64,000 nt of DNA from Macrostomum lignano (taxonomy: Eukaryota), in the NCBI GenBank assembly GCA_002269645.1, contig NIVC01001470.1:5944-69943 (forward strand), given 5' to 3'. Of the stretch, positions 1 through 58,411 are shown in pieces. The notes below the pieces were generated by a model. The model was not told the origin of the DNA, did no database searches, and saw only the letters and a program-made list of their open reading frames with translations. Within the stretch, counting starts at the first letter, position 1. Each line of letters opens with the position of its first letter. The position numbers and the translations under genes were made by a program.

Positions 1-3000
1 TTGCAGATGCTTGGCGATCGGGTACGGCTTGCACTGAATTGGTTCCGTGTGCGGCAGAAGTTTGATTTCCTGTTTGATGTCCTTGGCTCGTCCGATGTCG
101 TAATCATGATGGCAGAAGGCTTCGTTGTACTTCCACAACAGCTGTCGAACTTTCCTCTTTTGCTGTTCCGTAATCGGGCTGTCATCCAAATTGATCTTCT
201 TTTGAAATTCTTCCTCTGTTAGTCGTGGAGTCGCTTGTTCAATCAGCATAACCGATGCTTGGGTGTTGAGATGACCGATGCACATTCCTTGTCGTAGATG
301 AACCGTTTCTGTGTTCGGGTTGAAGATTTGTACTGGCAGTTGCTTATCCTTTGCAACCAGCACTAGTGCCGTAGGCATCATGATTTGATGTTTTGCCGTG
401 ACTCTCCTGTGTGGATCAAATATCATTGCTTCATCTGCCGCGCTGGTCGTTTTCGCTCTGACCCAGCATGCGCTTTCAGGCTGGATAATGACATCTTGCT
501 GCAGAGTTACTTTCGGTAGTACTCGAATCTGGTTGATCAGCGGTTGCTCCACCGTGTCGATCCTAAACGTTTGCTTGTTGAAGTCGAAGGTCAATGGTAG
601 TTGAAGCTGCTTGAACGTGTCGATTCCAACGATGACGTCTTGGTTTGGTAGTCTGTCGATGATGTACGTCGGGACCGTCAGCTGTTTATTAGCAATTTTC
701 AAGTCGATATCTGCTTTTCCTAGGATGTTGAGTGAATGTCCTCCTGCTCCTGCAACTGCGATTGCTGCTGGTCGTACCGCGAGTCGTAGCTTGTTGCATA
801 ATTGTTGCGAGATGACTGTGATCGAGCTGCCTGAATCCAGTAGTGCTCGACATGGCAAGTTGTTGACAATGACCTGAGCCATTGCTTTGCCAATCTCGGC
901 GTGTAGCGTACAGACGTAGTTTTCCGGCCATTTTGGCTCGTGCTGTTCTGCTTGATAGTTGGGTGGTTGTATCCTTGGTGCCGTTGGTGTTGTCGGAATC
1001 GATGGATATAGCCGCGTTGCTAGTGTCGGTTGCCCTTGAACCTCACAATGTGCAGTTTCTGTTAGTTCTAAACTGTTGTCGCTTTCCGTTGTCGTTCTTT
1101 GCATTATGGCATTCACTGTCTTCTTAGCTCTTGGACAAGTTTGACTGAAGCACCGTACGATCGATGAAATGATGAAGATTGCCGTGACAATCCACACAAT
1201 GCAAGCACCGTAGAAGATGAATCCTTGATAGAGACTGCCTCTTCCATTGAGCAGCTCCCAGAAGCTATTTGTCCAAAATGATTTGATGGCGCTGTCCATT
1301 GAAACAAGGACGGGAAATCTTCCTGTCCCGGTTCCTTTGTCCTTTCTTGTGAACAGCTGGTGAATCATCTTGCGTTGGGTGATGAACGCTTGCAAGAAGT
1401 CGTTGATCGTCCATCCTGGTGTTATCTCGTCAAGTTGGATATCGGCGAATGGCGTATACTTCGTTCTGTTGAATCGGATTTTCAAATCCTCCATGTCGTA
1501 GTTTTCGTCGACGATTACTTCCGGTTCTGTGACGTTTGCTGTCGTTCCAGTTGTTTTGATGACGTGTAGTGCATTGTCCAGTTGATAGTAGTTTACTGCC
1601 GTGGTGCAAGGTCTCGGTATTGCGGTGCCAACGATGATGTTGTGTACCGTGTCCAAGAATCCCTGAATTCGTTTTCCTTCGTAGAACGCTTCAATCCTTG
1701 GCTTATCGTAGCAGGTTGTTGACGTGTTTGACGGCAAGATGTTAAAGTGCTGTATCGGCGTGCACTTGTATATCAACAGATGCTCGTATATTGGAACTGC
1801 CAAAACGTTCGTCATTCCGGTGATTTTACGAAAAGTCATCGTAGGGTTGACATAGTAGTTTTGTCTGGCATAATTTAAGTTGATTGCGTGCATTTTGCAA
1901 GTTAGCTGGACCAGTGTTCGATGCAAGTGGTTTAACTGGTTGTGTAGATTGTGATCCAAAGCCGTTATCTTTGCTGACAACAGCCGGTTTGACACCAGTT
2001 TGGGACGTTCGATGTCACGTCGTCTTCTATTCTGTTTTTCTTGTTGCTGATACGTTCCATTGATGATTGCCAAGAAGGTTTGTTTGTCTTCATCCTTTAC
2101 GTAGACTGGTATCTCTTGTTCCGAGATGAATAGTGTCTTGTCTGTATCCTTGCATTTCAGTTTTTGCTCGACTGGTTTCTTTTGAAACGTCAGTGCCAAG
2201 TCTCCTGACTTTGCCAAAAACGTATTTGACAGTAGTCCTCCTTCAACTGTGTGATACTTTTGAAGCTTGCAGTCAATTTCCGGCTCAACTTCCCACGCGA
2301 AGAAGTATTGTCGTGATTTGTACGGTTCCTCATAGTGTGATTGTGCTCTGTGCTCAATCTGCCATCGATAGTCTTGATGATATGTTGGACTCAGTGGTAG
2401 ACTGTGTAGTTCTTCCTTCCGTAGAATCGGCGTTGGACACCATCCTTCACTGTATCGACATTCGCTTAGTTGCAGCTGTAACGATTCCATTTTCTCGTAC
2501 GGATTGTAGTAGAATGGAATATTTCTGATCAAGTAGCTGTTGCGTGCCATATATTCTTTCCATTTTCCGAAGAAGTGAATATATCGACCGTTGGCTGAAT
2601 TCTTTGTTCTGAACAGCTGTGCGTTGCCGACCTTCTCATCTGGTTCCAGTTCACCATCCTTTGAAAATAGTGTTTGATTCCATTGTAGGCATTCCGCGTG
2701 CGACACATGTAGCTCATGTTGTTTAAATCGGATCCGGTTCCATTGTCCGCGCCAAACTTTTTCCACCAGGTGCTTGTCTCTGAAGCATACTATCCCGTGT
2801 TGTCGATGCTTCTTGATGTTAGCCTTGTAGAGATCGAGTGTAATCTTCTTTGGTTTTGTCTGGTTTGTCTTGAAGTAACTGCATTTGATGTCGGTTGGTA
2901 TCTTGTAGATCATCGGTTGGATATGCGCATCCGTTGGACAAATCATTGGCTTTTCCGTTGCCGTTGCTTTGGCGACTACTGCTATCAGTAGTATCACGAT

Positions 3001-4869
3001 GATCCAGAATAGCCAGTTTTTCCACTTCTTGGATTTTGCCGTTGTCCTTGCTGGCATTGGCTGCGATCGCCATTCGTTATCTTCCATGTCCGCATCATAT
3101 TCTTTCGGTTGTTCCATTGGCTGATCCAGGCGGAAGGCTTCTGATTCGCTTTGCTTTTTGGTTATTTCATTATCTTCGTCTGCGGCTTCTTCCGATGTTT
3201 CCGTTGTTTCACTCCATTGCGTTTGGTATCTTTTCTCTGTCTTGTAGTCGACCGTTTGAATATAGGCTTCACCATTTCGTTTGTATCGGATCTCGTAGCA
3301 TTCGTCGCTGTCGGAACTCGGCTTTTCTTTCACCTGTTCTTTTTCCATTTCTTCATCTTTCCATTGTATTTCGTAGCCTTGATCGCTGTCGGAACTTAGA
3401 TTCTCCGCTCTCGGTTCTTCCTGCATTCCTCTTTCGGCTTGGTAGTCGTTCGTGTCATCACGCACCTCGCAGTCGTGGTCGTTGCCGTAACTTCTACATT
3501 CTTCTTCTTCTTTCATTTCTTTGTCTTTCATGCTCGTTTTGTCGTCATCCACTGTTGTCGATTCATAGTTGTTTTCTTCGCCGGTTTTCATCTTTTCTTC
3601 GTTGCCGATGTCGCTCTCCGCCTCCTCCCTTGTCTTGTGATTTACTTTCTTCCTGTTTTCTCTGCTGTCTCCGGTGGTCTCTTTTAATTTGATCATTTCG
3701 GTTTCATTCGTCTCTTTCGTGTTGTCAGTGTTGTCCTCGTGCGTCGTCTTCTTTTCGATCAAGCTGATGTCAAGTTCCGGGACTGTGAAGTCCATTTCCA
3801 AGTCGTCAATTGTGAACACTTGCTGTTCTTGCTGTTCATTTTCCGGTGTGTACGTGATGGCATTCGCGTATCGTGGCATTGCTTGCGTCGGCTGTCTTTG
3901 TGTGTATCTGACGTTGCGTGGCCTGTAGCCATTACTTCTGAAGCGGCCTTCGTTTCCGAAGCGGCCATCATTTCCGGAGCGGTCATTATTTCCGAAGCGT
4001 CTATCATTTCCGAAGCGTCTCATTCCTTGTTGTTGGCGATTTTGATAGTGCTGCCATGGTTTCTGCGGCTTCTGATTGTTGAATATCTGTCGCGGCTTGT
4101 CGTATCTTGTTGACCAATGAGGACAATTAATCTGATAATGTCCTTCTTGTCCGCAGTAGTAACATCTGGCTGAGGCTTGTTCATTTCGTCTTTTTTGTTC
4201 GGCGATAGCAGCTGTCTGGTGCTGCATTAACTTGTTTAGTTGCTGCGTCAGTTTCTGCACTTCATTGTTGCCTGTCGTCATTAATGGGGCACTGGCTTCC
4301 CATTGCATTCCGCAACGCAAAAGGTCTTCTTCGGTTTCGATATTTTCACGCAAAAGTCTATCCCGAAGTGACGGCTGTGCGTTGTTTATTACGTGCAGGA
4401 TGAGGTTTTGTTCACGATCCATCAATCGTTGTCTTTCTCTGGCGGCCAATTCTGCCGCTCCCAGTGGTGGTTGGTCCGCAGCTTGCAGCGGTGGCTGATG
4501 CAGTGCCTTAATTATCTGGCGGATATCGTCCACAAAGGCGAGGAAGGATTCTGTTGCTTGCATCCTTCTGTTATGCAACTTGTGCAGCAGCACTGATCTG
4601 TTTGTGCCGCAACGGTTGAAATGCGCGCGCAGTTGAATGATTAGTGCTGGATAATTTTGCTGTGTTGCCGCATCCAGCTTGCCGTAAATTTCTCGCGCAG
4701 TACCTTGGAGAAGAGGTGGCAGCAGCTGTGCCTTCTCTGGATTTTGTAGGTTGTATTCCCTACATACCAGGTCAAAATGGTCGACAAATGTGTTAAAATC
4801 TTTCTCCATCGAGAAAGTACCGACCGTTTCTTTGATGTCTCTGTGTACCGTTGGATTGCGCCGCGCCAT
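1..4869 (-). CDS. Gag-Env-Protease-Pol polyprotein, single ORF, at least 1623 aa, 3' partial
   Basis: Translated in 60-nt blocks from ATG 4869 to position 1 with no stop or frameshift. The nearest upstream in-frame stop is TAA at 4992-4990. Absent from the ORF track because it has no stop in the window. Confidence 0.92.
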   Translation of the reverse strand, partial: MARRNPTVHRDIKETVGTFSMEKDFNTFVDHFDLVCREYNLQNPEKAQLLPPLLQGTAREIYGKLDAATQQNYPALIIQLRAHFNRCGTNRSVLLHKLHNRRMQATESFLAFVDDIRQIIKALHQPPLQAADQPPLGAAELAARERQRLMDREQNLILHVINNAQPSLRDRLLRENIETEEDLLRCGMQWEASAPLMTTGNNEVQKLTQQLNKLMQHQTAAIAEQKRRNEQASARCYYCGQEGHYQINCPHWSTRYDKPRQIFNNQKPQKPWQHYQNRQQQGMRRFGNDRRFGNNDRSGNDGRFGNEGRFRSNGYRPRNVRYTQRQPTQAMPRYANAITYTPENEQQEQQVFTIDDLEMDFTVPELDISLIEKKTTHEDNTDNTKETNETEMIKLKETTGDSRENRKKVNHKTREEAESDIGNEEKMKTGEENNYESTTVDDDKTSMKDKEMKEEEECRSYGNDHDCEVRDDTNDYQAERGMQEEPRAENLSSDSDQGYEIQWKDEEMEKEQVKEKPSSDSDECYEIRYKRNGEAYIQTVDYKTEKRYQTQWSETTETSEEAADEDNEITKKQSESEAFRLDQPMEQPKEYDADMEDNEWRSQPMPARTTAKSKKWKNWLFWIIVILLIAVVAKATATEKPMICPTDAHIQPMIYKIPTDIKCSYFKTNQTKPKKITLDLYKANIKKHRQHGIVCFRDKHLVEKVWRGQWNRIRFKQHELHVSHAECLQWNQTLFSKDGELEPDEKVGNAQLFRTKNSANGRYIHFFGKWKEYMARNSYLIRNIPFYYNPYEKMESLQLQLSECRYSEGWCPTPILRKEELHSLPLSPTYHQDYRWQIEHRAQSHYEEPYKSRQYFFAWEVEPEIDCKLQKYHTVEGGLLSNTFLAKSGDLALTFQKKPVEQKLKCKDTDKTLFISEQEIPVYVKDEDKQTFLAIINGTYQQQEKQNRRRRDIERPKLVSNRLLSAKITALDHNLHNQLNHLHRTLVQLTCKMHAINLNYARQNYYVNPTMTFRKITGMTNVLAVPIYEHLLIYKCTPIQHFNILPSNTSTTCYDKPRIEAFYEGKRIQGFLDTVHNIIVGTAIPRPCTTAVNYYQLDNALHVIKTTGTTANVTEPEVIVDENYDMEDLKIRFNRTKYTPFADIQLDEITPGWTINDFLQAFITQRKMIHQLFTRKDKGTGTGRFPVLVSMDSAIKSFWTNSFWELLNGRGSLYQGFIFYGACIVWIVTAIFIISSIVRCFSQTCPRAKKTVNAIMQRTTTESDNSLELTETAHCEVQGQPTLATRLYPSIPTTPTAPRIQPPNYQAEQHEPKWPENYVCTLHAEIGKAMAQVIVNNLPCRALLDSGSSITVISQQLCNKLRLAVRPAAIAVAGAGGHSLNILGKADIDLKIANKQLTVPTYIIDRLPNQDVIVGIDTFKQLQLPLTFDFNKQTFRIDTVEQPLINQIRVLPKVTLQQDVIIQPESACWVRAKTTSAADEAMIFDPHRRVTAKHQIMMPTALVLVAKDKQLPVQIFNPNTETVHLRQGMCIGHLNTQASVMLIEQATPRLTEEEFQKKINLDDSPITEQQKRKVRQLLWKYNEAFCHHDYDIGRAKDIKQEIKLLPHTEPIQCKPYPIAKHLQ
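600..880 (-). other. Retropepsin (aspartic protease) domain
   Basis: ALLDSGSS with catalytic Asp at 835-837, flap-like VAGAGG, and C-terminal VIVGID motif. Confidence 0.9.
1156..3036 (-). other. env: Envelope glycoprotein domain (signal peptide, ectodomain, furin site, heptad repeat, TM), probably class III fusogen-like
   Basis: Signal-like KSKKWKNWLFWIIVILLIAVVAKATA (2959-3036). About 580-aa Cys-containing ectodomain with CRYSEGWC and at least 6 N-x-S/T sequons. NRRRR-DI at 2017-2028, then LSAKITALDHNLHNQLNHLH. TM FIFYGACIVWIVTAIFIISSIV (1156-1221). Confidence 0.8.
4123..4869 (-). other. gag: Gag region: capsid-like helical domain plus CCHC nucleocapsid zinc knuckle (4123-4164)
   Basis: aa 1-249: DFNTFVDHFDLVCREYNL...LHKLHNRRMQATESFLAFVDDIRQIIKAL (retrotransposon capsid-like), then CX2CX4HX4C, followed by an R/G/N-rich RRFGND repeat. 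Confidence 0.8.
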
Positions 4870-5520
4870 GTTGTTGATAGGGTAGAACGGTAGTTCAAGA
4901 TCTGGATCGATTTGTAACGGATCGTCCAGTGTGGTGTTTGCCTCGGAATAAACCTCGACTGTAACGAATTGCCTTGTGGTGTCGATTTGTTATTCGCTGG
5001 CCTCGGATGCGGTGTGGCTTGCTGCCACTGGTTGTCCTCAAATGAACTTGTTCTGTTCGCTTGCTGATTTCGCACTTATGCGGCGTCCCGCAAAGTGTAT
5101 CTTCAAGTTGAAGTGGACTTGTCTTCTTGCTTTGCAAAGTCTTTCTTCTCTTCTTTGACTCTCTCTCTTTTGTCAATTAACTCTGCTCTCCACGAAGTTT
5201 CAATTAATTTCGGTTTTGTTTTAGTTTTTGTGCCGGCAAAATGTTTCAGTTATTTTTTGTTTGTTTTGCGTCGACGATTCTTTTTATTTTTGGTTTGTTT
5301 TCAGTGTACCGACGAAGTTAATTTCGGTTTTGTTTTAAACTCACACTTGCTCGAGCTCGTCAAAACAAAATTTTAACACGCGTGCTCAAACTGTACTCAA
5401 ATTTGACAGGTGCTCAAACCTGTACACCAAATTTTACTCGAGTTTCAAAACGTAACGGACCTAAAAAGTGTTAACTCTAACACGTGCGCGCAAAATTAAT
5501 GAAGTCGCTCTGTCGTCACT

Positions 5521-6326
5521 TTACAATAGCTTGGCCAGGCTATTGCTCAAGGTTTGAGTAGTGCCGAGAGGGCGAGATCACCAATTGATGTGTTCCTTAT
5601 TACCCGACTTTCGATAATCAAGGAACAATCACTTCTAGCTCAACAGCTAGGCAACCCAGTAAGTCAAACGAAGGTATTCAATTACCTTTAATCCGGATTT
5701 GAATTTCTTGAGTAGTTCTCGCTAGGAACTTGTCAGTAGATCTCGTAGATCAGGCGCCTTGATTCTTCAGTTGCTCTGGTCCTGGTTCCTCTTGTACTTC
5801 CGATAAGTTCTTCCGGCCGGTATCTTCCGTCAGGACCAATCAGAGGCCTCGTAGCAACAATGGGTACCCTGCGCCAAACTGCGGTCTAAATTAAGCCTCC
5901 TTCTTCTAGCAGTGCCTCTATGCACTCTAGGTATAGCTCCGGAAACCACTGATAGTCCTCTAAGATCTATCAGGGGCAGTCCTTCTGGAGACTGCAACCA
6001 ATGGAGTCTAAACAGACTCAAGAGTCTCAACAGACTCAATTAGACTCAAGTCTCAATAGACTTGAGCGAGACGTCTCTAACACAACGGGCGCAAATAAGG
6101 AAGGCTTACCGCAACAACTCGACCGAGTCTCGATTGACTTGGTAGATCAGGAAGTCCTCCTAAGGCTTCCTCTTCGGAGCGCTCCTCTTCCGTGGGGAGA
6201 ATGGCTCCGGTACCGCTTCAGATCGCTTGTATTTATAGACAAGTTTTTGATCCAAAATAGTATCATGACAATTCACGTGTTGCGCTAAAAGGGGAAAATG
6301 GCTCATGGCGTATTATTCTGGTAACA
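5521..6326 (-). repeat. Putative 5' LTR
   Basis: The minus strand begins TGTTAC at 6326 and ends GTAA at 5521 (imperfect inverted termini). It contains TATAAATA at 6237-6230. The partner LTR is outside the window, so the boundaries are inferred. Confidence 0.5.
6230..6237 (-). promoter_or_regulatory. TATA box of LTR promoter
   Basis: TATAAATA on the minus strand about 90 nt inside the LTR start. No ATG occurs on that strand between it and the gag ATG. Confidence 0.6.
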
Positions 6327-7037
6327 TCTTTTTCTGGTAGCGTGATTCATTCAAAGCTTAGGCGCACATGCGTGTACTTACTTACTTATAGTAGTATTAT
6401 ACGATTATCTTCTTTTTTCCTTTTTTAACGGGAGGTAGAACACTCTACAATATATAGCGCCTGCGGCACCAAACACGAGTTCCTGCAGCGCAAAAAATGC
6501 CTGCGACGCCAAATGAGCGCTGACAACACCGATTCTAAAAATAATGTAAAATGTTAAAATGTATAATTCTTGCGGCTTAATTTGTTCCCCACCATAAAAT
6601 CAATCTTGTGACGCCCCTGCCACAACAGTACATGTAACTCACAAACCTTCTGTCGTAAATGCACATGCAAGTCGTATATAGCCAGTAGAAGTGACTAAAA
6701 AGAGAATCAAAGTTGTAGATGGGGTTGGTACATGTTTGTTAGCCCGACAAACGACGAGAGTGTAGGCCTGAAGCCATAACCATGCCTAGACTCATTCGTC
6801 TTTTTCTCTTTTGATTTCCATTTACCTTAAGATATTGAGTTTAAATACTTTTAGTATTTTTAACATTAATTTACTTGCACTTCTTATTCATACAGCGAAA
6901 ATATTTTTACTTCCTTTTAAATATTAGTTGACGTATGCTCCGGTATCTGAGGCTTACTCTATGTTTCAAGTAAATAATTGTCGTAAAACACGAAAATGTT
7001 CATGTATTACTACCACATTAAAGACAGTGTTGCCTAG

Positions 7038-7195: not shown

Positions 7196-8968
7196 ATGTG
7201 GCTGTCGAGCTTTTTGGCATTTGCTCTGCTTGCTCTCGCATGCGGTGAAGTTTACTTCAAGGAGGAGTTTTTAGATGGTAAGTTAGTTCTCGCTCTGACG
7301 TTTATTTTGTTTAGATTCTCAAATTCCCTTGTGTTGCTGCAATACTAGAATAGGGCATTGTCTTGTTGGTTTTCTTCATTTCAACCATATCAGAATATTA
7401 AAGTAACTAAAAATAGTATTGAAATCATTCCATTCTTTTTAACTTTGCACATTCAAGCAGTTAAAATAACCCCCTTGTGTTAGCTTTGCATTTTGTTCTA
7501 AAAGAATAAACTGTGGTTACTGGTTTACTTTTTTATAGTTTTTGAAAGATAATTCATTAAAAAGGCTTCTATTATTGAGTATGAGAGAGAAAGGAAGTAT
7601 AGGTTTCTAGCTAGCTACTTTAATTTAATTGTAACATATTATAAGATTGTTTTATAACTTCACAATTTTTTTGTTTCCTTAAAGACTATTTGTATATATA
7701 TATATTGCCTATCTTTACATTTTTCTATGTTTCTCCTAATGTAAAATCCTTTGATTTAAATATTTATTTTTTTCTTTTAATTTTAATTATATGCTTTGCT
7801 AATTTGTCTTCACAAAATATTTATTTCAGAGTCATGGAAGGATCGGTGGGTAGAGTCAACCTACAAGGGTAATGACCAAGGCAAATGGGAATGGACTGCT
7901 GGCAAGTTCTACAATGATGCTGAAAAGGACAAGGGAATAAAAACCTCCCAGGATGCCAAATTTTATGGCATCAGTGCCAAGTTCAACTCTCCATTCTCCA
8001 ATGCTGGCAAGACTCTGGTGATCCAATTCCAGGTCAAGCATGAGCAGAACATTGACTGCGGTGGTGGCTATGTCAAAGTCCTTGGCAGCGATGTTGACCA
8101 GAAGAACTTCCACGGCGACACACCCTACAAGATCATGTTTGGTCCTGATATCTGCGGCCCTGGCACTAAGAAGGTGCACGTTATCTTCAACTACAAGGGC
8201 AAGAATTTGCTCACCAAGAAGGAGATTCGCTGCAAGGATGACGAGCTAAGCCACCTGTACACCCTGATTGTGAAGCCTGACAACACCTACGAGGTGCTGA
8301 TTGACAACGAGCGAGCCGAAGGTGGAGAACTCGAGGCCGACTGGGACTTCCTGCCACCCAAGAAGATCAAGGATCCGGCCGCCAAGAAGCCAGACGACTG
8401 GGACGAGCGCGAGAAAATTGACGACCCGAACGACAAGAAGCCGGAGGACTGGGACAAGCCCAAGACCATCCCGGATCCCAAGGCCAAGAAGCCGGACGAC
8501 TGGGACGACGAGATGGACGGCGAATGGGAGCCGCCGATGATTGACAACCCGGACTACAAGGGCGACTGGAAGCCCAAGCAGATTGACAACCCGGCCTACA
8601 AGGGCAAGTGGATCCACCCGGAGATTGACAACCCGGACTACTCGCCGGACCCCGAGCTGTACAAGTACACCGACATCGGCGCCATCGGCTTCGACCTGTG
8701 GCAGGTGAAATCTGGCTCCATCTTCGACAACGTCTTCGTTGGCGACGACCCGGCCGAGGCCAAGGCCTTCGCCGACGAGACCTTCAAGAAGACCGTCGAA
8801 GGCGAGAAGAAGATGAAGGAGAAGCAGGACGAGGAGGACAAGAAGAAGGCGGAGGAAGAGGAGAAGAAGCGCAAAGAGGAGGAGGAGAAGAAGAAGGCCG
8901 AGGAGGGCGACAAGAAGGAAGCGGACAAGAAGGAGGACGACAAGAAGGACACCAAGGACGAGCTGTAG
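7196..8968 (+). CDS. CALR: Calreticulin; exons 7196-7277 and 7830-8968, 406 aa
   Basis: Exon 1 encodes signal peptide MWLSSFLAFALLALACG-EVYFKEEFLD. GTAAGT...TTTCAG intron with matching phase. KHEQNIDCGGGYVK, MFGPDICG, P-domain repeats (IxDPxAxKPEDWD), acidic tail, C-terminal KDEL. AATAAA at 9086-9091. Confidence 0.97.
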
Positions 8969-10980
8969 AGAGCGGCTTCCGTTGCCTAGGGCCTCTGTAT
9001 TTGCGGTTGGGCGGCTGGCACTCCAACTAGTTTATAAATAGTTCTTAAATTTCAATTTCGAGCTCACGCAACAAAATTTTGGCTGAATAAATTGACACGC
9101 AAAACGGCATTTCCAGCGGCCCCGTGCAACTGCAACTCCCTCTGTCTGCTTTCCTGTGTCGAATAGCCATCTCTCTCTCGTACCGCACAATATTTGTCCC
9201 TATCCCGGCATAGATGTGGTAGAACTAATTACACCTGGTGGATCAGCTATTATCTATCGTTGTTATTAATAATACTCCCAATATAGTAAGTAGCTAGACT
9301 TAATTAACGTTGCTTAATGATTTTTTACTCCTTTTCTCTCCATCCAGCGGACATTTTGTCACTCTGAGCCCCGACTGCTTGTTAGTTAAAAAGGGAAAGT
9401 TTTTTATACGTTCATTATTGTTATTTATTTGTTAGAATGATTCTAATTAATACACGCTTAAGCCTAATTTTTTGCACACATTTTTTGGTTGCAATCGGAG
9501 GCACAAGTTTCCATGCTTCACAATATAAAACCATAATTGCCACACTGATCCCAGGCCCATGCGCAATAATTGTGCCAATGCTAACCAAAATAAATGCCAT
9601 CCCGTTTAAAACTGGGTCTAGTAATAGCCATATTATTATATAGTAGCGCCCAGTCAACCAGGGGCTGCAATAATTACTTTTCTTATTTGTAATATTGAAA
9701 TCTATCGGAACTCACCCAGTGTCTTTGTTTGGCCACAACAAACCCCGCAATGATTTGTTTAAAACTTCCCGCTCCTTGCTCTGGTGTCATTTAAATAAAC
9801 CCAACCTTCTGTCTGTTTCCTTCGATTATATATCGACTATTTATGTTGTCACGTTGAGTAAATATATAATATCTCTGTTTTTTGGAACTCATTCTGTTAT
9901 GCGAAACTATGCTAAATAATAAATAAATAAATATGGAATGTTTAGAACAAATTAACTATGTTCAAAGATCTTACATACACAATCTCAAAGGTAATATATG
10001 ATATAATATATGAGTAATTATGTTATAGTCTAATTAGCGCGCAAAACAGCTATAAAGTGCTTGTAAACTACTGATCTCGAATTTGTCAGTAGTCTTGCCG
10101 CAACTTTTATTTCTACCAGATATCATCACTGGTTCTAGCTCGTAATACATGTAGCTTTACATGAAAAGACGAAGCAGAACTCTGAAAATTAGTGCTATTT
10201 TCGTGAAGTCAAAGAAAAAAGACTCGAATGAACTGCAACTATTTATTCTCTACTAATAGTAGAGCTTATAGAACCGCGTTTAGCAAACAAAATTGTTGAA
10301 ACTGTTGGAATGCAGCTCAATCTTAGTGGTCCTACGTGTGCTGTGCATGTACAGTATGTGCTGGTCCGATCTATTTATAAAGACCAAGTTTCAAATTTGC
10401 ATAAGAGAAAAAAGCACAGCAATTCTTCTTTCGGCAAAAAAGACGGCCAAGTCCGCGAAACTAAACTGTGCCAATTGCAAGTCATTCCAAGGCAAACAAC
10501 ATTTTATTGGCACACTTTACAGCCTAAATTTATCCATTCTGATTCTCTCGCCGTCTGTCTCCTGTCAGCTCTAATTCACAGAAGTGTAGTGTGCAGGTGC
10601 AGGTGCGTTCATAAACTCAACTCTTGACACGCCTAAAAGGGGGCGGTTGTGCGCGAGTACGTGCGTCTACGAATACGTTACAGATTCATTATATGCAGAG
10701 AAATGCTAAAAAAGCGAAACAGAAAAACACCCGAACACCGAGACAGCTATAAGCTCTATTTGCGCTTATAAACAGCTCGTCCTGTCTGCACACCAACTAT
10801 TAGCTAAAGTGTCAACTTTACTCTCCGTGGGTCTCTCAGTTAAACTGCAGAACTTTGATATACACCTATAACAGCACTGCTTAGTTGCTCAGCGACCTCC
10901 GAGTGTGACCCGATGCTGACCGACAGATCGATGTGAGTTCGTTTATAATACACAATTTTTTATTCCCCTTACAGGTGTAT

Positions 10981-15596: not shown

Positions 15597-18500
15597 CTAA
15601 TTAATGGAGAAGGGTGCAGACTTTCTCTTCCTTGCTCCAGTAGGCACAGTTGCCATCGGCGCGACCATGAACTCGTACTCAGGCCTGCTCTCCTCCACCG
15701 GTGACGATTGTCTCACCTGAAAACAATTCAAGATTATAGGAATTAATAAATGTATGCTATATGAAATTCTCAAGATTTTCACACAAAGCTTTTATCAAGC
15801 TTCACAAACTTGGCATAACCCGCCGGCCAATTTTGTGAACAAGTCGCAAATGATCACGTGACCGCGCACGGAATCAAACCAGGGGTCGTGGCGTGAGAGT
15901 CGGATGCGCGTTCACCGCTGAGCTGCCCTGCCCCACCCCTTCCGGAACTTACTTTCGGAGGCTCGGGCGTCACAGAGTCGATCTCGTGAGCCTCCTTTAA
16001 GTGCCGATTGAGTAGTTCGAATGTCGGATAGGAGCCGCCGCACTCTGAGCACAGATAGGCCTCGGCATCGGCGAACTGATGGAGAAAAAAAAAGTTGTTG
16101 CGTCATGCTTCAAAAATGGAGCACAAGATCAACTTATTGAGTCCGCATCACCTCAATGTCATCGACAATCTCGAAGTGCTGATGATAATCGTCTCTGTCG
16201 GACGCGTCTCCAGCATCGATGGCTGAATTATTGTCAAACCGCTGCTCCGAGCTCGACTGAGCCGGTTGCGGCGGCGACAAGGGTGAGGACTCATCTTTTC
16301 CATTAGCAGCATCGGCCAGAACCAGACTGCCGGGAATTTCTGCAGCCTCTTCCTCCCCTGCCTCGGCTTCATCAGCGGCATGGTTCTGAATGACGACTAG
16401 ATTAGAATGCACGCTAGCCAGATGGTCCCGCAGGCGGCCGGCAGTGAGAAAGGCCCGAGGACACTGCGAGCACCGATGCGGCAGGGACAGCAGCGGACCC
16501 TGATCAGCTGTTGAGGGCAGCGTAGGCGTTGAAGCAGCGCGTTAGCTGACGAAGGAGTCATGGCAGCAGTGGCAGCAGCCGCGGCAGCCGCAGCAGCAGC
16601 CGCAGCCCGCCGATGACTCGGTCCGTAGAACTGCGGATGACACTTAGACCGGTGGACAACCAGGCCTAGCGAGGAGGAGAACTGCGACGGACAGATGTCG
16701 CAGGGAAAAGCCAGCGGCTGGTGTTGCGCCGGGTTCAGACGAGGCGCTTTTGCGGCTGGTGGAGCGTCGGCTCCGGCAAAGCTCCTGGTGCCACGACAGC
16801 TGGTTCGCAAGTGGGCCTCCAGCACATCTTTTCGGCAGTAGGTCTTGCCGCAGTTCGGGCAGGGGACTCGCTCGCGCTCCGGCTGGGTAGTTACTCGCTG
16901 CAGCGGCTGCTGGGGTCGTGAGTCAGCTGGGCCAGTCAGACCCATGAGGCTCCTGCGGGTTGCGTGCATTTTGTACATATTAGACTCGGTTTTTTGGTAT
17001 AATTTCTTAGTGTCTTAGATGCTTGCCTATCTGTCTTCTTGTCAGTCTTACCTAGCAACAGAGGGCTGCTGCTGAGGCGGCGCCGGTGGCGGCATCTGCC
17101 GCTGTCTGACCTGCTGCTGAGCAACTTTATTCAGACTGCAGACGGCGGTGTGCCGGTCGAGCGACGCCCTATCAGTGAAAGTCTCGTTGCACATCGAGCA
17201 CTCGTGCTCCTCGTCTTCGCAGTCCAGCAGCAGCATCTGGCCAGAGGCGGCCTCATCCGATTCCTCCTCGTCCTGCTGTCCGAGGTCGCCGCGGCTGTTT
17301 GGAAGAGCAGAGGTGCCGTGCTGCTGGCAGAACCGACGATGGACAGTCAGATTATCAGCGTACTGGAATGTCCGATGGCACATATCGCAGCGGTGGCTGC
17401 TGCCAGTTTCTGGGATCACCTGTACAGAAGTCGACGGACACACTTCAGATTGGAGCTGCTGCTGCTGTTCCTGTTGCTTCTGAGCCTCGCAGAAGTGGCG
17501 CGCTAAATGGCAGGGCATGCGGAATTCGCGATGGCAGAGCTTGCAACTAACCGAATCGTTGGAGTGAACCACGCTGTGCTTAACGAGGTTGGCAGTGGAG
17601 CTGAAGGACCTGCCGCACTCAGTGCAGTCAAATTTGGCTGCAGACTGCTGGCCCGTCGGAGTGTTGGAAGGTCAGATTGATTGAGTCAAGGCGGGAGTTT
17701 ATAGAAAACTGTTTAGTTAAGTTTAAATATTAAATAAACTGCATTTGCTCACACATCATTACAAGATTATAAAAATGTAAGTTTACCTGTAAAACAGCGA
17801 AGATATTATTTGTTGACTTATATTTTGGCATGATCTTCTCAATAATAGTTTTAGGGTTTCTGAATTTGGAATCCTTATAACTGGATCAGATCTGACAGAT
17901 TGACATCGATGAAACACTGTGGGGCAGGGGGCTTCGTTCAAACGAACGATAGACATTAGACGAGGTCCAGTTGCCATAGACTATTACTTTCGAGCTGTTC
18001 AGGGATGATGCGTTTCCAGAATTTCCTCATTCATTCGTGGGGACTGCTTAACTTGACATGCGGACAAAATATGCTGAGCAAAAATGGCCTAATAGCGGTT
18101 TCTGGTAATAACGCTGGTGATTATCAAGTGGTTCCTGCACAACCCCCAATGTAAACCCGTACAATCTACAAAGTAAAGGAAGAATGTGAAACAGCTAAGA
18201 TTGTAGAGGAAGAGGGTAGGGCGTGGAGAAATATGAGAGCAAAGTTTATAGAATAATTACGAGGGGCCTATAAAAGCAAGATCCCATACGTTTTCACCAC
18301 GTAAAAATACTCACATGCGATGTTGATCCGTCCATGGGTACTCCAGCCATGGAGACTAGGTCTCCCATCTCCAGCTCGCCGTCGGCCAGCGCTTCGGCGA
18401 AGCAGCGTCCGAGATGATCGCACAGGAAGTACCTGTCAGCGAAGACTTTGCCACACTTCGGACAGCCGGCCCGAGACGAGGCCGCCAATGTCCAGCTGCC

Positions 18501-20806
18501 AGTGTCAGAGATCTGCAGACGGCCTTCCATGGACAAGTCCTCGCCTCTGTCGCCGCTGTCGTTGCCGTCCTGGTCTAGACAAGCAGCATTGGTCAGTCCG
18601 TTAGAAGACTTCAACACACCGGTGCCGAACTTGTGCACCCGATTGTGCTGAGCCAGGCTGCGCGCCGACGGAAAGCAGGACTGGCAGATGCTGCAGAAAT
18701 GCCGGTCGGGTCGGTCTTGCGATGCCGACATCGACACCGAGGATGGAGATGATGAAGGTGAGGCTTCTGGTGACAGCTCGCCTGGTTCTCTAGCGCTGGC
18801 AGCGGCAGCAGTATCAGATTGACTGACCGCAGCCCAGTGCACTCGAATGTGGAGCAAAAGACTGCGCCGGCTGCTGTGCACTGTGTGACAGAGGTGGCAC
18901 ATGAAGCGGACTAAGCGGTCTGACTCGCCGTCTTCCGACTCGTCATCAGCGGGTGGCAGCGGCTCGTCGGTGGCCTGGTGTCGTTCAACTAGATGTCGCT
19001 TTAACTCATCGGCAGAGCCGAATGCGGCCTCGCAGCAGTGACAGACGAACACGATGTCTTCCTCGTCCCCTTCTTCAACGTCGTTAGCAAAGTCCTCCGT
19101 AGGTTCATCGGCTGTCTGCGGCTGGGTCCCCTGCTTGGACATCGACGGGCCGTACTTGTGAATCCGCAGGTGCTGACTGAGGCTACTGGGCTTGTCAAAT
19201 ACTCGGCCGCACTCGCCGCAACGACAGACCTCGTTGTTAAAGGCATTCGTCTTGATTCTCAGCGTCACCTTGCTCGAAGATGAATCCGGTGCAGCCGTTT
19301 CTGCCGCTGCACCTGTCACTCCACCAGAAATAGACGATGTCGACGCAGTCTCCATCAGCGGCACAGTGATGCTGATACCGTTCTTCTTGCGCGCCTCGCG
19401 TCGCTTTAGCGCTCGCTCCGACATCTCCTTGGGGTTACCGCAGGCGCTAATCTGGCTGGGTACAAATCGAAGAGGAACAATGCCGAATTTTCCAGCCTTC
19501 CACTCCTGGTACTGCTCATGGTGGAAGTAGATGCAGTGCTTGCCCATGCCCTTGGAGAAGATTAGCTCGCCGCAGAACGGACACGGTGTGGCCTGCTTGT
19601 CATCGTCGAAATGGGTGGGGTTAGCAGCAGCGGCGGGCGCGGTTGCGGCTGCTCCTGACGCCTTGTTGCCGTTGCAAATGACTTCAGCAGACGCCGATTT
19701 CACGGAGGGCGGCGGTGTCGACGGCGTGGGTGTGGCCGGATCGGATTCGTCCAACTCAATTTCTTCTTTATCCATCGATCGCTGATCTGCATCCTCTTGC
19801 ATCTCGTCGATGGTAATCTCATCCGACTGCTTTGTGAACTGATCGTACTCGTTGAGCGTCTGGCTGAGGATGTCCGGGTTTGGTTTCACGTAACGCAGCT
19901 GAACGGAGCCGAACTTGCCGTTCTTCCAGCTCGTGTACTCATCGAGGTGGTGATTGACACAATGCTTGGCGAGGCCTTTGATTGTAGTTTTGTGCGTGAT
20001 GCAGAACGGGCAGTTGATGTCGAGTGGATTCTCGTTGGTGTTAAACTCCAACTTGCCTTCCTTGCTCATAAAGAACGGCGCCGTGGTTGCTAGCTGAGTC
20101 TTCAGCTTTGATCGTTTCCCAGGCCGCTGCGCTAGAAGACCATTAGAGCTTGGAATTCTACGGATTGGCTCCGGTGTTGGCGCAGCCTTCGTCTGCAGTT
20201 GCTGGTCGTTGGTGGATGGGCCAGACAGGTTGGTGGAGTCATCATCGACCTCGTCAGCACCATCTAGAACCATGCCTGTGACCAACGGCTCTTCTGTGTC
20301 CTCGACAATCGGCGGGCCCGTCCTTTTCATGGCTACACCAGCAGCACTGGACACGGAAGACTCCTCGGAGGCGTGAAAACTGCGGATCATCTCCTTGGTC
20401 AGGTCCATTAGGCGGATGCTGCGGCCAAACCAGCCGGACTTCCAGGCGGCGTACACACCATTGTGGAAGCACATGTAGTGCTTAGCAACGCCCTTCTTGC
20501 TCTTGATGGTGCCGCTGCACTCTGGGCAGACAATGACGACCTCATCTAGCGACGCTTGACTGACGGAGCCGACGTTGGTCACTGGCACTGTTAGCGTGAG
20601 GATGTCTCCCTTTGCAGCGGACACCATCCGTTGATGGTCGTCGGAGGATGCCGAATCAGCCAAGTTCACCCCGGGCTGGCCCTGCCCACCAGGCTGTGGG
20701 CGTGGTGCTTCTTGCGCAGGTGCTTGTTGAGACTCTTCTCGGACGAATAGGCCTTAGTGCACAGGCGGCAGTGGTGAAACGGACTGTCGTCCAGTTTGAG
20801 GCTCAT
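15597..20806 (-). CDS. Multi C2H2/C2HC zinc-finger protein (about 16 fingers); exons 20806-18315, 17647-17052, 16952-16152, 15716-15597; two apparent 1-nt deletions (about 20700 and 16540)
   Basis: Many CxxC...HxxxH/C motifs. All three introns have GT-AG ends and matching phases (0, 2, 0). Frame switches join finger CRLC...HLRKKH to the 791-aa ORF, and finger CSQC...HLASVH to the upstream ORF. Ends in an NLS-like RKRKS. Confidence 0.85.
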
Positions 20807-27160: not shown

Positions 27161-28918
27161 ATGACGCAGGATGTGGCGACTCAGCCATCGTCGGCTCAGA
27201 AGCAGCCAGCTCGGCGGCGAGCCCGTCAGATGAGGGGCTATCATGGCGCTCGTACTGACGCTGCCATTCCGCTGACCTTCAAAGATCCCGACCCGGAGTC
27301 TCCACCGCCTCCGAATCAGTCTGCTGCTGCCGCGCAGCCGCAAGCTGCTGCAGCAGTCAGCCGACACTGTCGAAAGAGTCAACTGGAGCAGTTGCGAAGC
27401 GACCTCGAGAAGCTGGGCCAGCAGCTGGCCTCACTGCGCGGCGGTGGAGCGGGCCCAGCGCAACCAGATCCAGCGAAGCAGCCTGAGAAGTCGCCGCTGA
27501 AGCTCCAGGCACCGAAGAAACCATCGCCGCCACCGTCGCCACCGAAGCAAACATCGCCAACGCCCCCACCGCCGCAGTCATCCCCGCCTTCGTGGAGGCG
27601 AAGGATGGTGGCAGCGGCAACGACAGCAACAGCTGCAGACAAGGAGACCAAAGAAACTTCTAAAACTGAGACAACACTCAGAATGGAAATGGCGTTGAAC
27701 AACCACCAGTGGTTGAGGAGGCGACTTCGACGCGAGTGGAACGGAGGAGGCCCCGGCGTCGCCGGTCCCTAAACGAGGACGAGTCAGCACCACACGGAGC
27801 CCGCAGAGCCGGCGGAGCTCGGAGGCGAACCCGCCGTGGCGCTGGCCTCCTGTGCAAGGAGAAATCACCTTATCGAGATGACTCAGACGGCCATCTGATC
27901 TATGCGTTCGGCGACGTACTAAAAGATCGCTACCGGATCGCTCGCACACTTGGCGAGGGAACCTTTGGCAAGGTGACGGAGTGCATTGATATGCAAGACC
28001 TCTGCCAGACTCGCGTTGCGGTGAAGATTGTGAAGAATGTTACTAAGTACCGTGAAGCAGCCATGCTTGAGATCAACGTTCTCAAGAAACTTGAGGAAAA
28101 CGACCCTAACGGAAGGCATCTGTGCATCCGACTACTGAGTTGGTTCGACTTCTTTGGCCACGCTTGTCTTGTGTTTGACTTGCTTGGCAAGTCAGTGTTT
28201 GATTTTTTGAAGGAGAACGACTTTGCTCCCTACCCAATTGAGCATGTGCGACACATAGCCTACCAGCTGGTGTACTCAGTGGCTTTTCTGCACGCCAATC
28301 AGCTCACCCACACCGACCTCAAGCCTGAGAACATCCTGCTGGTGAAGTCCAGCTACACGACTTTCTACAATCCGCGCCGCAAAAGGAAGAGCGAATGCTT
28401 GACCGCACCGACATCCGACTGATTGATTTCGGTTCGGCAACCTTTGACCACGAGCATCATTCGAGCGTGGTATCGACCCGTCACTATCGCGCACCGGAGG
28501 TCATCCTGGATCTTGGCTGGGCGCAACCGTGTGACGTCTGGTCCATCGCTGCATTCTGTTTGAGCTGTACACCGGCTTCACCCTGTTCCAGACGCACGAA
28601 GATCGCGAGCACCTGGCCATGATGGAGCGAGTGCTCGGCCATGTGCCCTACAGAATGACTCGAGCCTCGCGAGCCGGCCTCTTCCGGCATGGCAGGCTCG
28701 ATTTCGACCATCACGGAGTTGAAGGCCGATTTGTGCGCGAGAACTGCCGCCCGCTGCATAGATACCTGCGAGACGAGACGGTCGATTCGCGCAACCTCCT
28801 GGATCTGATGCAGCGGATGCTGGAATTCGAGCCGGAGGAAAGGACGACGCTCAAAGTTGCGCTGCATCATCCGTTTTTCGCCTCGATACCGCCGGAATCA
28901 GTTCTGCACTCGGGCTAG
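27161..28918 (+). CDS. CLK: CLK/LAMMER dual-specificity kinase, intronless, with three apparent 1-nt deletions (about 27700, 28390, 28548)
   Basis: [55 protein letters not shown] and [11 protein letters not shown]. The frames rejoin if one G is restored (aag-gag-cga; atc-ggc-tgc). The start codon is uncertain. Confidence 0.9.
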
Positions 28919-57177: not shown

Positions 57178-57453
57178 GTCCGTGATCAGAAAGAGAAAGT
57201 AAGGTCTGTTGTATGAACGCATGCCTGGCGTACGCATTCGTAGGAATGTACGTACACGAAGATCAGCTTCAATGCATCAATAGTTTAACTCTCAACTCTC
57301 ATCTTTTTAATTTACACGTCGACAAACAAATAGATTAAGGTTTTAAAAAACTTCTTTTTAATTTATTTTTCAGCCATTCTACTTTATTACTACGGCACAG
57401 CGAATCGCTCGCTATTTTCGCCTGAAAATCTTACTCACATCATCACCTTTCGA

Positions 57454-58411
57454 ATGCGTTACGAAGCTGAACTGGTGCTGAGTTTCGTTATTTCCATCTT
57501 GAAAAGCATCGGCTATCCCCTGGGCCTGCTGCTACAGACCCTGGCCGTTATCTACCTGGTTCGCGGAAACCATGGCTACCCTCCATCAGCCCGCAGCTGG
57601 TTCCTCCTGGTGCTGGGAGCGGACATCGGCAGCACACTCTACCGACTGTACGACCTCATTACGGTGGACTTTAACATTACAAACCCGTTCATTGAGAATG
57701 CGGGCGTGAAAGGCAATTTTGGCCAGCTCTTTATTGCCCTGATGTGGGGCCTGCGACGAAGGAGCGACGCTTTAATGCAGGGAATCTTCTGCAAGGCATT
57801 CTTCATGGTCCTGTACTTCCCTATTTATCTATCACCCATCGCGCTCACGATCAACTCGCTGATTCGTTGCTACTGCGTCAAACATCCGCTAAGAGCCGCT
57901 GAATTGCCAACCGTTTGCGCAGACAGAGCTCTCAAAGCCTTTGCCGTGGTCTTGTCGTTGACTATTGCGATCACTGTGGGTATGCTGTCCGTGGATGGTT
58001 GGTTTAGCTTGCAGCCAGTCATTACCACCTTGGGAGAAACGGTTTTCTATGGCGATTGTGCCATACCGAGAATGCACGCGATTAATACAGATTTCAAACT
58101 TGTATTAGTCAGCTATTGGTTTACTCTGGCCATTGTATTCATCATCTGCGCGTTGAATATCCTGTCGGCTGTTATCATCATCAAAGTCCTGTTTAGTGGC
58201 GAGATTCGCGCCTCAACTAATGATTCGAATGCCGAGATCCGGGCCGCTGCGATGATCCTGGGCATGAATATTACACTCTTTGTTTGTTTCTTCGGTTCTC
58301 GAATAATGTTGCTGGTCAGCGGCATGATCGATAAGATCGATCACCCATTAGCATGTTAGTTACTATTTTTTATTGACTATTTTTATTGCTTGCAATTCCT
58401 TTGATCTATTG

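Follow-up and report, generated by a model that had tools for sequence, protein, structure and literature searches.

The retroelement that begins on the minus strand of the DNA stretch analysed here (the window: 64,000 nucleotides of Macrostomum lignano contig NIVC01001470.1, positions 5,944 to 69,943) is almost certainly a Ty3/gypsy element (Metaviridae-type) of the GAG-ENV-POL errantivirus kind, with env between gag and pol, a gB-like envelope ectodomain and many near-identical copies. The observations as a whole are very probably best explained by a young multicopy element of this layout, whose single polyprotein would be threaded through the membrane and whose budding would be driven by the cytosolic tail of the envelope. 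The remainder of the element was read in the leftward contig piece L009, which overlaps the window by 1,057 nt of identical sequence, and the whole element measures 11,673 bp.

The 5' LTR of 864 bp (5586..6449, -), located by blastn and by reading of its TG...CA ends from the sequence, is paired with a 3' LTR of 862 bp outside the window (L009 1581..720, -, blastn), and in the blastn alignment the two are 99.77% identical, with no mismatches and two one-base gaps. The flanking sequence contains a 4-bp target-site duplication, ATAT (6450..6453, -), which is repeated past the 3' LTR. Two nucleotides past the 5' LTR lies a 12-mer tRNA primer-binding site (5572..5583, -), the same 12-mer as in a published entry discussed below, and the leader (4870..5585, -) comprises 716 nt without an ATG. 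All terminal hallmarks of Ty3/gypsy elements are present (paired TG...CA LTRs, PBS, PPT and a short TSD). The insertion is very young, and the element has recently been spreading in the flatworm. Some 1.3 kb beyond the 5' LTR, a calreticulin coding exon ending in KDEL (7787-8968, +; Pfam E 1.5e-85) points away from the element.

The original prediction of a stop-free ORF of at least 1623 codons with the order Gag, Env, protease was confirmed from the ATG by ORF reading, Pfam and hydropathy, the first 1,623 codons of the Gag-Env-Pro-Pol ORF filling positions 1..4869 (-). Leftward extension recovered the RT, RNase H, integrase and 3' LTR, all in L009: the frame stays open across the RT, with its YVDD, the RNase H and the integrase, with HHCC, rve and GPY, and ends with the stop codon at L009:3316, which gives a full ORF of 2,498 aa, the same length as in identical copies. 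The order in this one frame is Gag with its CCHC, acidic linker, internal signal, Env, TM, tail, PR, RT, RNase H and integrase. Gag (4123..4869, -; dN/dS 0.03) comprises a capsid-like region and a CCHC knuckle (4123-4164; aa 236-251 in Pfam); the capsid-like region has no Pfam match in the query protein, while related proteins match Ty3_capsid/Retrotrans_gag. The basic Arg/Gly-rich repeats and the long acidic linker that follow (3034..4122, -; 31% D+E in the linker) are the fastest-evolving part, with 54% and 24% identity between subfamilies and dN/dS of 0.42-0.57. Downstream of Env and its tail are the aspartyl protease (LLDSG; 592..903, -; Pfam PF13650 at aa 1332-1421, E 1e-9) and a conserved domain of about 105 aa between PR and RT (250..564, -; dN/dS 0.06). 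Rotifer elements carry a dUTPase at the matching PR-RT position (PMC5408684); this identity was tried for the spacer domain and gave no match, and neither Pfam nor PDB returned one. The pol is of the gypsy type, with PR-RT-RNase H-IN order, H2C2, rve and GPY; the BEL/Pao pol markers Peptidase_A17 and DUF5641 are absent from the query in Pfam and present in the control P0056.

Just two segments stand out as strongly hydrophobic, aa 614-644 and 1212-1245 (Kyte-Doolittle 2.4). The gB-like ectodomain sits between them, and the interval contains 12 Cys, six sequons for N-glycosylation and, at aa 948 (window 2017-2028), a furin-type RRRR; no sequons are found past aa 1134 in the window part of the polyprotein. 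The putative internal signal or signal-anchor (2959..3033, -; hydropathy), which is retained in three subfamilies, has a basic N-flank, a hydrophobic core and A-T-A ahead of the predicted cut at aa 637/638, where signal peptidase would cleave. The predicted Env transmembrane helix (1156..1224, -; hydropathy and model), which would act as the stop-transfer, is followed by Cys and basic residues. The signal and TM were assigned on the strength of the hydropathy, the A-x-A site and the basic flanks. The signal-ectodomain-TM topology suggested originally is highly probable.

As to the envelope itself, profile, fold and model indicate that it is a class III fusogen, its predicted ectodomain (1225..2958, -) resembling gB and nyamivirus G. 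A profile of 46 Env sequences matches herpesvirus gB chains (best E 2e-15), and the Pfam Monjiviricetes_fusion family is matched at E 9.5e-6, under its cut-off. The AlphaFold model (pLDDT 78.5, pTM 0.53) retrieves in Foldseek HSV-1 gB (E 2.7e-22, TM 0.41) and, as the top viral match, Nyavirus G (E 1.5e-25). Word-based protein searches with Env returned its own family only; an HMMER library search yielded 57 database relatives, the family's own gene model left out. The ectodomain fold is shared with herpesvirus gB and with Mononega- and Chuvirus G, but in our element it occupies a place between Gag and protease. In Retroviridae, by contrast, Env is of class I and lies 3' of pol, and in two relatives, the BEL/Pao element P0056 and the gypsy element P0078, the gB-like env comes after the integrase. 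P0078 is a single-ORF element; P0024 has several protease domains around an env, and P0029 and P0052 have two protease motifs after it.

The topology and processing that we infer for the polyprotein are modelled on membrane-protein biogenesis and on the polyproteins of flavi- and alphaviruses. Gag would be translated in the cytosol, after which the internal signal would direct the ribosome to the ER and the ectodomain would pass into the ER lumen until the TM helix halted transfer; synthesis of the tail, protease, RT and integrase would then again be cytosolic. For processing, signal peptidase and furin would act in the lumen or the Golgi, and the cytosolic cuts would be made by the viral protease. 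Gag would be tied to the membrane via the linker and signal anchor and Pol to Env via the tail, and Gag, Env and Pol would be assembled 1:1:1 with neither frameshift nor env splicing. The tail motifs PTAP, YPx(I/L) and PPxY could recruit TSG101, ALIX and NEDD4-type ligases, respectively, after which an enveloped particle would be pinched off and fuse with a different cell, probably one of the germline.

The layout is constant among the copies. A 2-kb env probe found 93 candidates, and all 40 of those scored match, 11 of them being identical over 2 kb; a search with the Env protein gave at least 76 matches (72 of 264 candidates scored), including subfamilies at 62-63% Env identity, which retain the layout in frames of about 2,500 aa. 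All 20 fetched copies, picked partly for long frames, show the order gag-env-PR-RT-RH-IN, and in none of them is the middle domain missing or placed after the integrase. The same order occurs in divergent subfamilies; among the 57 Env relatives, CCHC is found upstream in 19, PR/RT downstream in 17, and both in one protein in 10. Between subfamilies dN/dS is 0.01-0.03 for RT, RH, IN and Gag, 0.05-0.09 for Env and 0.14-0.41 for the tail, with the most distant comparisons saturated, and 0.09 and 0.19 for the two RING ORFs described below; all domains are under purifying selection. Patchy dS suggests recombination. Since the order is constant in the copies and env is under purifying selection, env is not chimeric, nested or decaying. 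We found no support for an assembly chimera, for the nesting of a viral glycoprotein gene within the element or for an env that is a passenger in decay; this reading is extremely improbable and is ruled out by the copy survey together with the selection on Env. On contigs C2121, C1130, C87, C272 and C4009, several copies or fragments of the element or its RING genes are no more than tens of kb apart and point the same way; these clusters may be tandem arrays or piRNA-cluster-like loci.

A single ORF could, however, be a coding layout only, with splicing, early polyadenylation or internal starts giving separate products and the full polyprotein remaining minor. Retroelements normally need far more Gag than Pol, and this excess speaks for separate products; a 1:1:1 ratio is unusual among them, and unseen shorter RNAs may for this reason exist. 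The use of internal env promoters by Tor elements (PMC4402516) points in the same direction. In eight of the 20 copies, nevertheless, a single frame covers the whole of Gag through IN, which supports the single-polyprotein reading; breaks elsewhere are scattered, and none recurs at the gag/env or env/pol border. Among the best 40 of 653 LTR candidates, the pairs fall into a long class (spacing about 10,811, at least three pairs) and a short class (9,727-9,759, at least eight), and no env-less spacing is met among these 11 pairs. We therefore regard separate products, the main rival of the single membrane-threaded polyprotein, as unlikely. Contigs from four runs, whose RNA origin is a guess (no element-bearing run is recorded as RNA), cover 28-30 of 30 element bins, with joints confined to the 3' RING region and none skipping env; assembled contigs prove neither transcription nor absence of splicing, and this coverage was not counted as evidence.

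The predicted cytosolic tail that links Env to the protease (904..1155, -) has late-domain-like motifs at 955-1011: LYPSI, PTAP and PPNY are packed into 19 residues (aa 1287-1305). YPxI is present in 20, PTAP in 19 and PPxY in 16 of the 20 copies, and in subfamilies with about 38% tail identity PTAP and YPxI are retained in swapped order. In retroviruses, such L-domains are represented by PTAP and YPXnL of HIV p6 and by PSAP, LYPAL and PPPY of MLV (PMC8402826). The likeness is that all three motif types occur together just upstream of the protease; the retroviral ones, however, reside in Gag or the matrix protein, and the motifs predicted here in the Env tail. For these motifs, picked after being noticed in the query, 32 of the 57 relatives had a usable tail and 25 were left aside: P[TS]AP is present in six of the 32 vs 0.26 expected (0 of 1,500 shuffles) and YPx[LI] in five vs 1.03 expected (5 of 1,500 shuffles), and PPxY, in two vs 0.74 expected (245 of 1,500 shuffles), is not enriched. 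We take the enrichment of P[TS]AP in these sequences to be real but partial, and ESCRT recruitment through the Env tail to be somewhat more probable than its opposite; a TSG101 UEV domain that matches human TSG101 at E 2e-44 is encoded in the host genome.

The same motifs might serve something other than budding, being either chance words in a proline-rich linker or signals for ESCRT-dependent degradation of excess Env-Pol. This would agree with the richness of the tails in proline, with the lack of PPxY enrichment and with the distribution of the motifs, any of which is present in 11 of the 32 tails and none in the other 21. NC-to-signal linkers also hold such motifs (3/16; 49 of 1,000 shuffles). 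On the other side, the enrichment of P[TS]AP outlasts the removal of the close kin P0006, P0008 and P0056 (4/29 vs 0.24 expected); none is found in 28 pre-protease control segments, taken from RT relatives whose protein includes no env; permuted words, other than the overlapping SAPP and TAPP, hardly occur; and the motifs persist while their order changes. A non-budding role of the tail motifs is thus doubtful, though a serious possibility. With regard to late domains in retrotransposon Env tails, the literature searched contained nothing relevant; subscription papers could mention them.

Between pol and the 3' LTR, ORF reading revealed two further ORFs (L009 3195..2527 and 2456..1824, -), 222 and 210 aa long, whose Cys/His patterns resemble those of RING domains; the two are paralogous and 24% identical. 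Across ten RING sequences, 22 columns are invariant, and the 13 that are Cys or His fall into two zinc modules. The RING profile matches the RINGs of SIAH1, TRIM5, TRIM21 and RING1B (E 1e-5 to 1e-4) in the first module only, and RING matches in Pfam stay under the cut-offs. In Foldseek the structure model (pLDDT 84) has RING domains in its top rows and no match at E<=0.001; an Atlas search with the first RING ORF gave a weak lead, a viral C3HC4 cluster at 0.91, with a recognition value under the threshold. The RING genes are probably accessory E3 ligases, and E3 activity itself appears reasonably likely. Both ORFs are whole in seven of the 20 copies, the second is broken in one, and a single truncated ORF is left in 12, and the pair is for this reason dispensable for recent spread. 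The window copy is of the long form (spacing about 10,811) with both ORFs whole. Related RING ORFs occur at no fewer than 151 places (150 of 249 candidates scored); in the 4.5 kb after one copy of the P0006-type sister family there is none. Three RING ORFs in a row are apparent in some relatives (C1063, C1064, C1405; L022:7859-9802). The first RING ORF (L009:3195, -) starts with MGNAxS, which we take to be a myristoylation-like start, and two of five sequences compared begin in this way, including that in L015. For rotifer LTR elements, the passages covered of PMC5408684 contain no mention of RING ORFs. Concerning RING ORFs in LTR elements generally, nothing relevant was met in the literature searched, and subscription papers could mention them; a catalogue of M. 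lignano LTR families (PMC12801592) has, in the parts accessible, no discussion of env or RING.

The original prediction that this could be a distinct class of enveloped LTR retroelement, with a layout described for no other element, held as to the enveloped layout; the suggestion that it was undescribed was not borne out, GAG-ENV-POL elements being in print. Errantiviruses of Nematoda, Bryozoa and Platyhelminthes with gB-type ENV have been reported as GAG-ENV-POL Ty3/gypsy elements (Chary & Hayashi, eLife 2026, PMC13524379), the preprint agreeing on the layout, and Supplementary file 1 of that paper lists Platyhelminthes_Rhabditophora_Mlig_errantivirus_2, an entry with 16 copies whose LTRs measure 863-864 nt and are spaced by 9,727 nt. 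Our element has in common with this entry the gB-type ENV, the GAG-ENV-POL grouping, the PBS 12-mer, the LTR length and the multicopy state; the spacing of the entry is that of the short form seen here, whereas the copy in the window has the longer spacing and both RING ORFs intact. Judged by the values in the table, the two most likely belong to the same family. The main text of PMC13524379 treats three ORFs and does not contain the terms "polyprotein", "single ORF", "RING", "late domain" or "ESCRT". The layout is thus already known, and the tail motifs and RING genes appear undescribed as far as the literature search reached. The flip of ENV and POL in nematode elements (Sacco et al. 2022, J Gen Virol 103:1739) is cited in PMC13524379. 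It is shared by our element and the nematode endogenous retroviruses (NERV). The latter are said to occur in nematode hosts, within one clade, and reportedly have a continuous gag-env-pro-pol ORF, a nyamivirus-like env and extra 3' ORFs for a small protein and an Upf1-like helicase. The continuous ORF is also met here; the host, in contrast, is a flatworm, and the extra ORFs ascribed to NERV are unlike the RING genes.

The closest full relative, P0006, is a named M. lignano protein, a single ORF of 2,852 aa with the same layout, a larger Env, and PSAP and LYPTL in the tail. Its family is also present in this genome, which named flatworm proteins match at 100%, and it groups with our element in the RT tree (support 100/96); the layout is consequently old in the flatworm host. 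In this tree, built from 70 rows (every second RT hit) with neither named Ty3/gypsy references nor an outgroup, gag-env-pol rows fall in three places, and a single gag-env-pol clade is not rejected (p-AU 0.64, the constrained tree being 6 log units higher). GAG-ENV-POL elements are reported as non-monophyletic in PMC13524379, where one of the eight parts of the node table places the flatworm entry in RT clade S and nematode entries in R and Y. One copy of the P0006 family is followed, on the opposite strand, by an ORF of 84 aa that is hydrophobic and rich in Cys (L031:637-891, -).

It is conceivable, although we stop just short of calling it probable, that all these features belong together: a class III Env would be flanked by Gag and Pol, both held at the membrane through the one polyprotein, the late domains would have moved from Gag to the Env tail, budding and Pol packaging would depend on Env, and the element would be a "complex" errantivirus that carries a duplicated pair of RING E3 ligases, whose target may be host silencing. 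Such assembly logic is not known to have been described for retroelements. Within the literature searched, late domains in an Env tail would be a novelty among Ty3/gypsy elements, and so would accessory genes of the RING type. The layout is known and the mechanism seems unstudied; since the family has recently been active in a flatworm that is a laboratory model, it offers a native system for the Gag:Env:Pol ratio, budding and germline access.

Elsewhere in the window, many tandem arrays extend across 10958-58715 (among them a 23-bp unit x 72, a 15-bp unit x 132 at 99% identity, and several of 4 bp), and spurious long ORFs at 35-54 kb are due to them. According to Pfam, the window also contains C2H2 zinc-finger ORFs (16397-20753, -), a protein-kinase exon (27670-28422, +) and a rhodopsin-type GPCR-like ORF (57334-58359, +).
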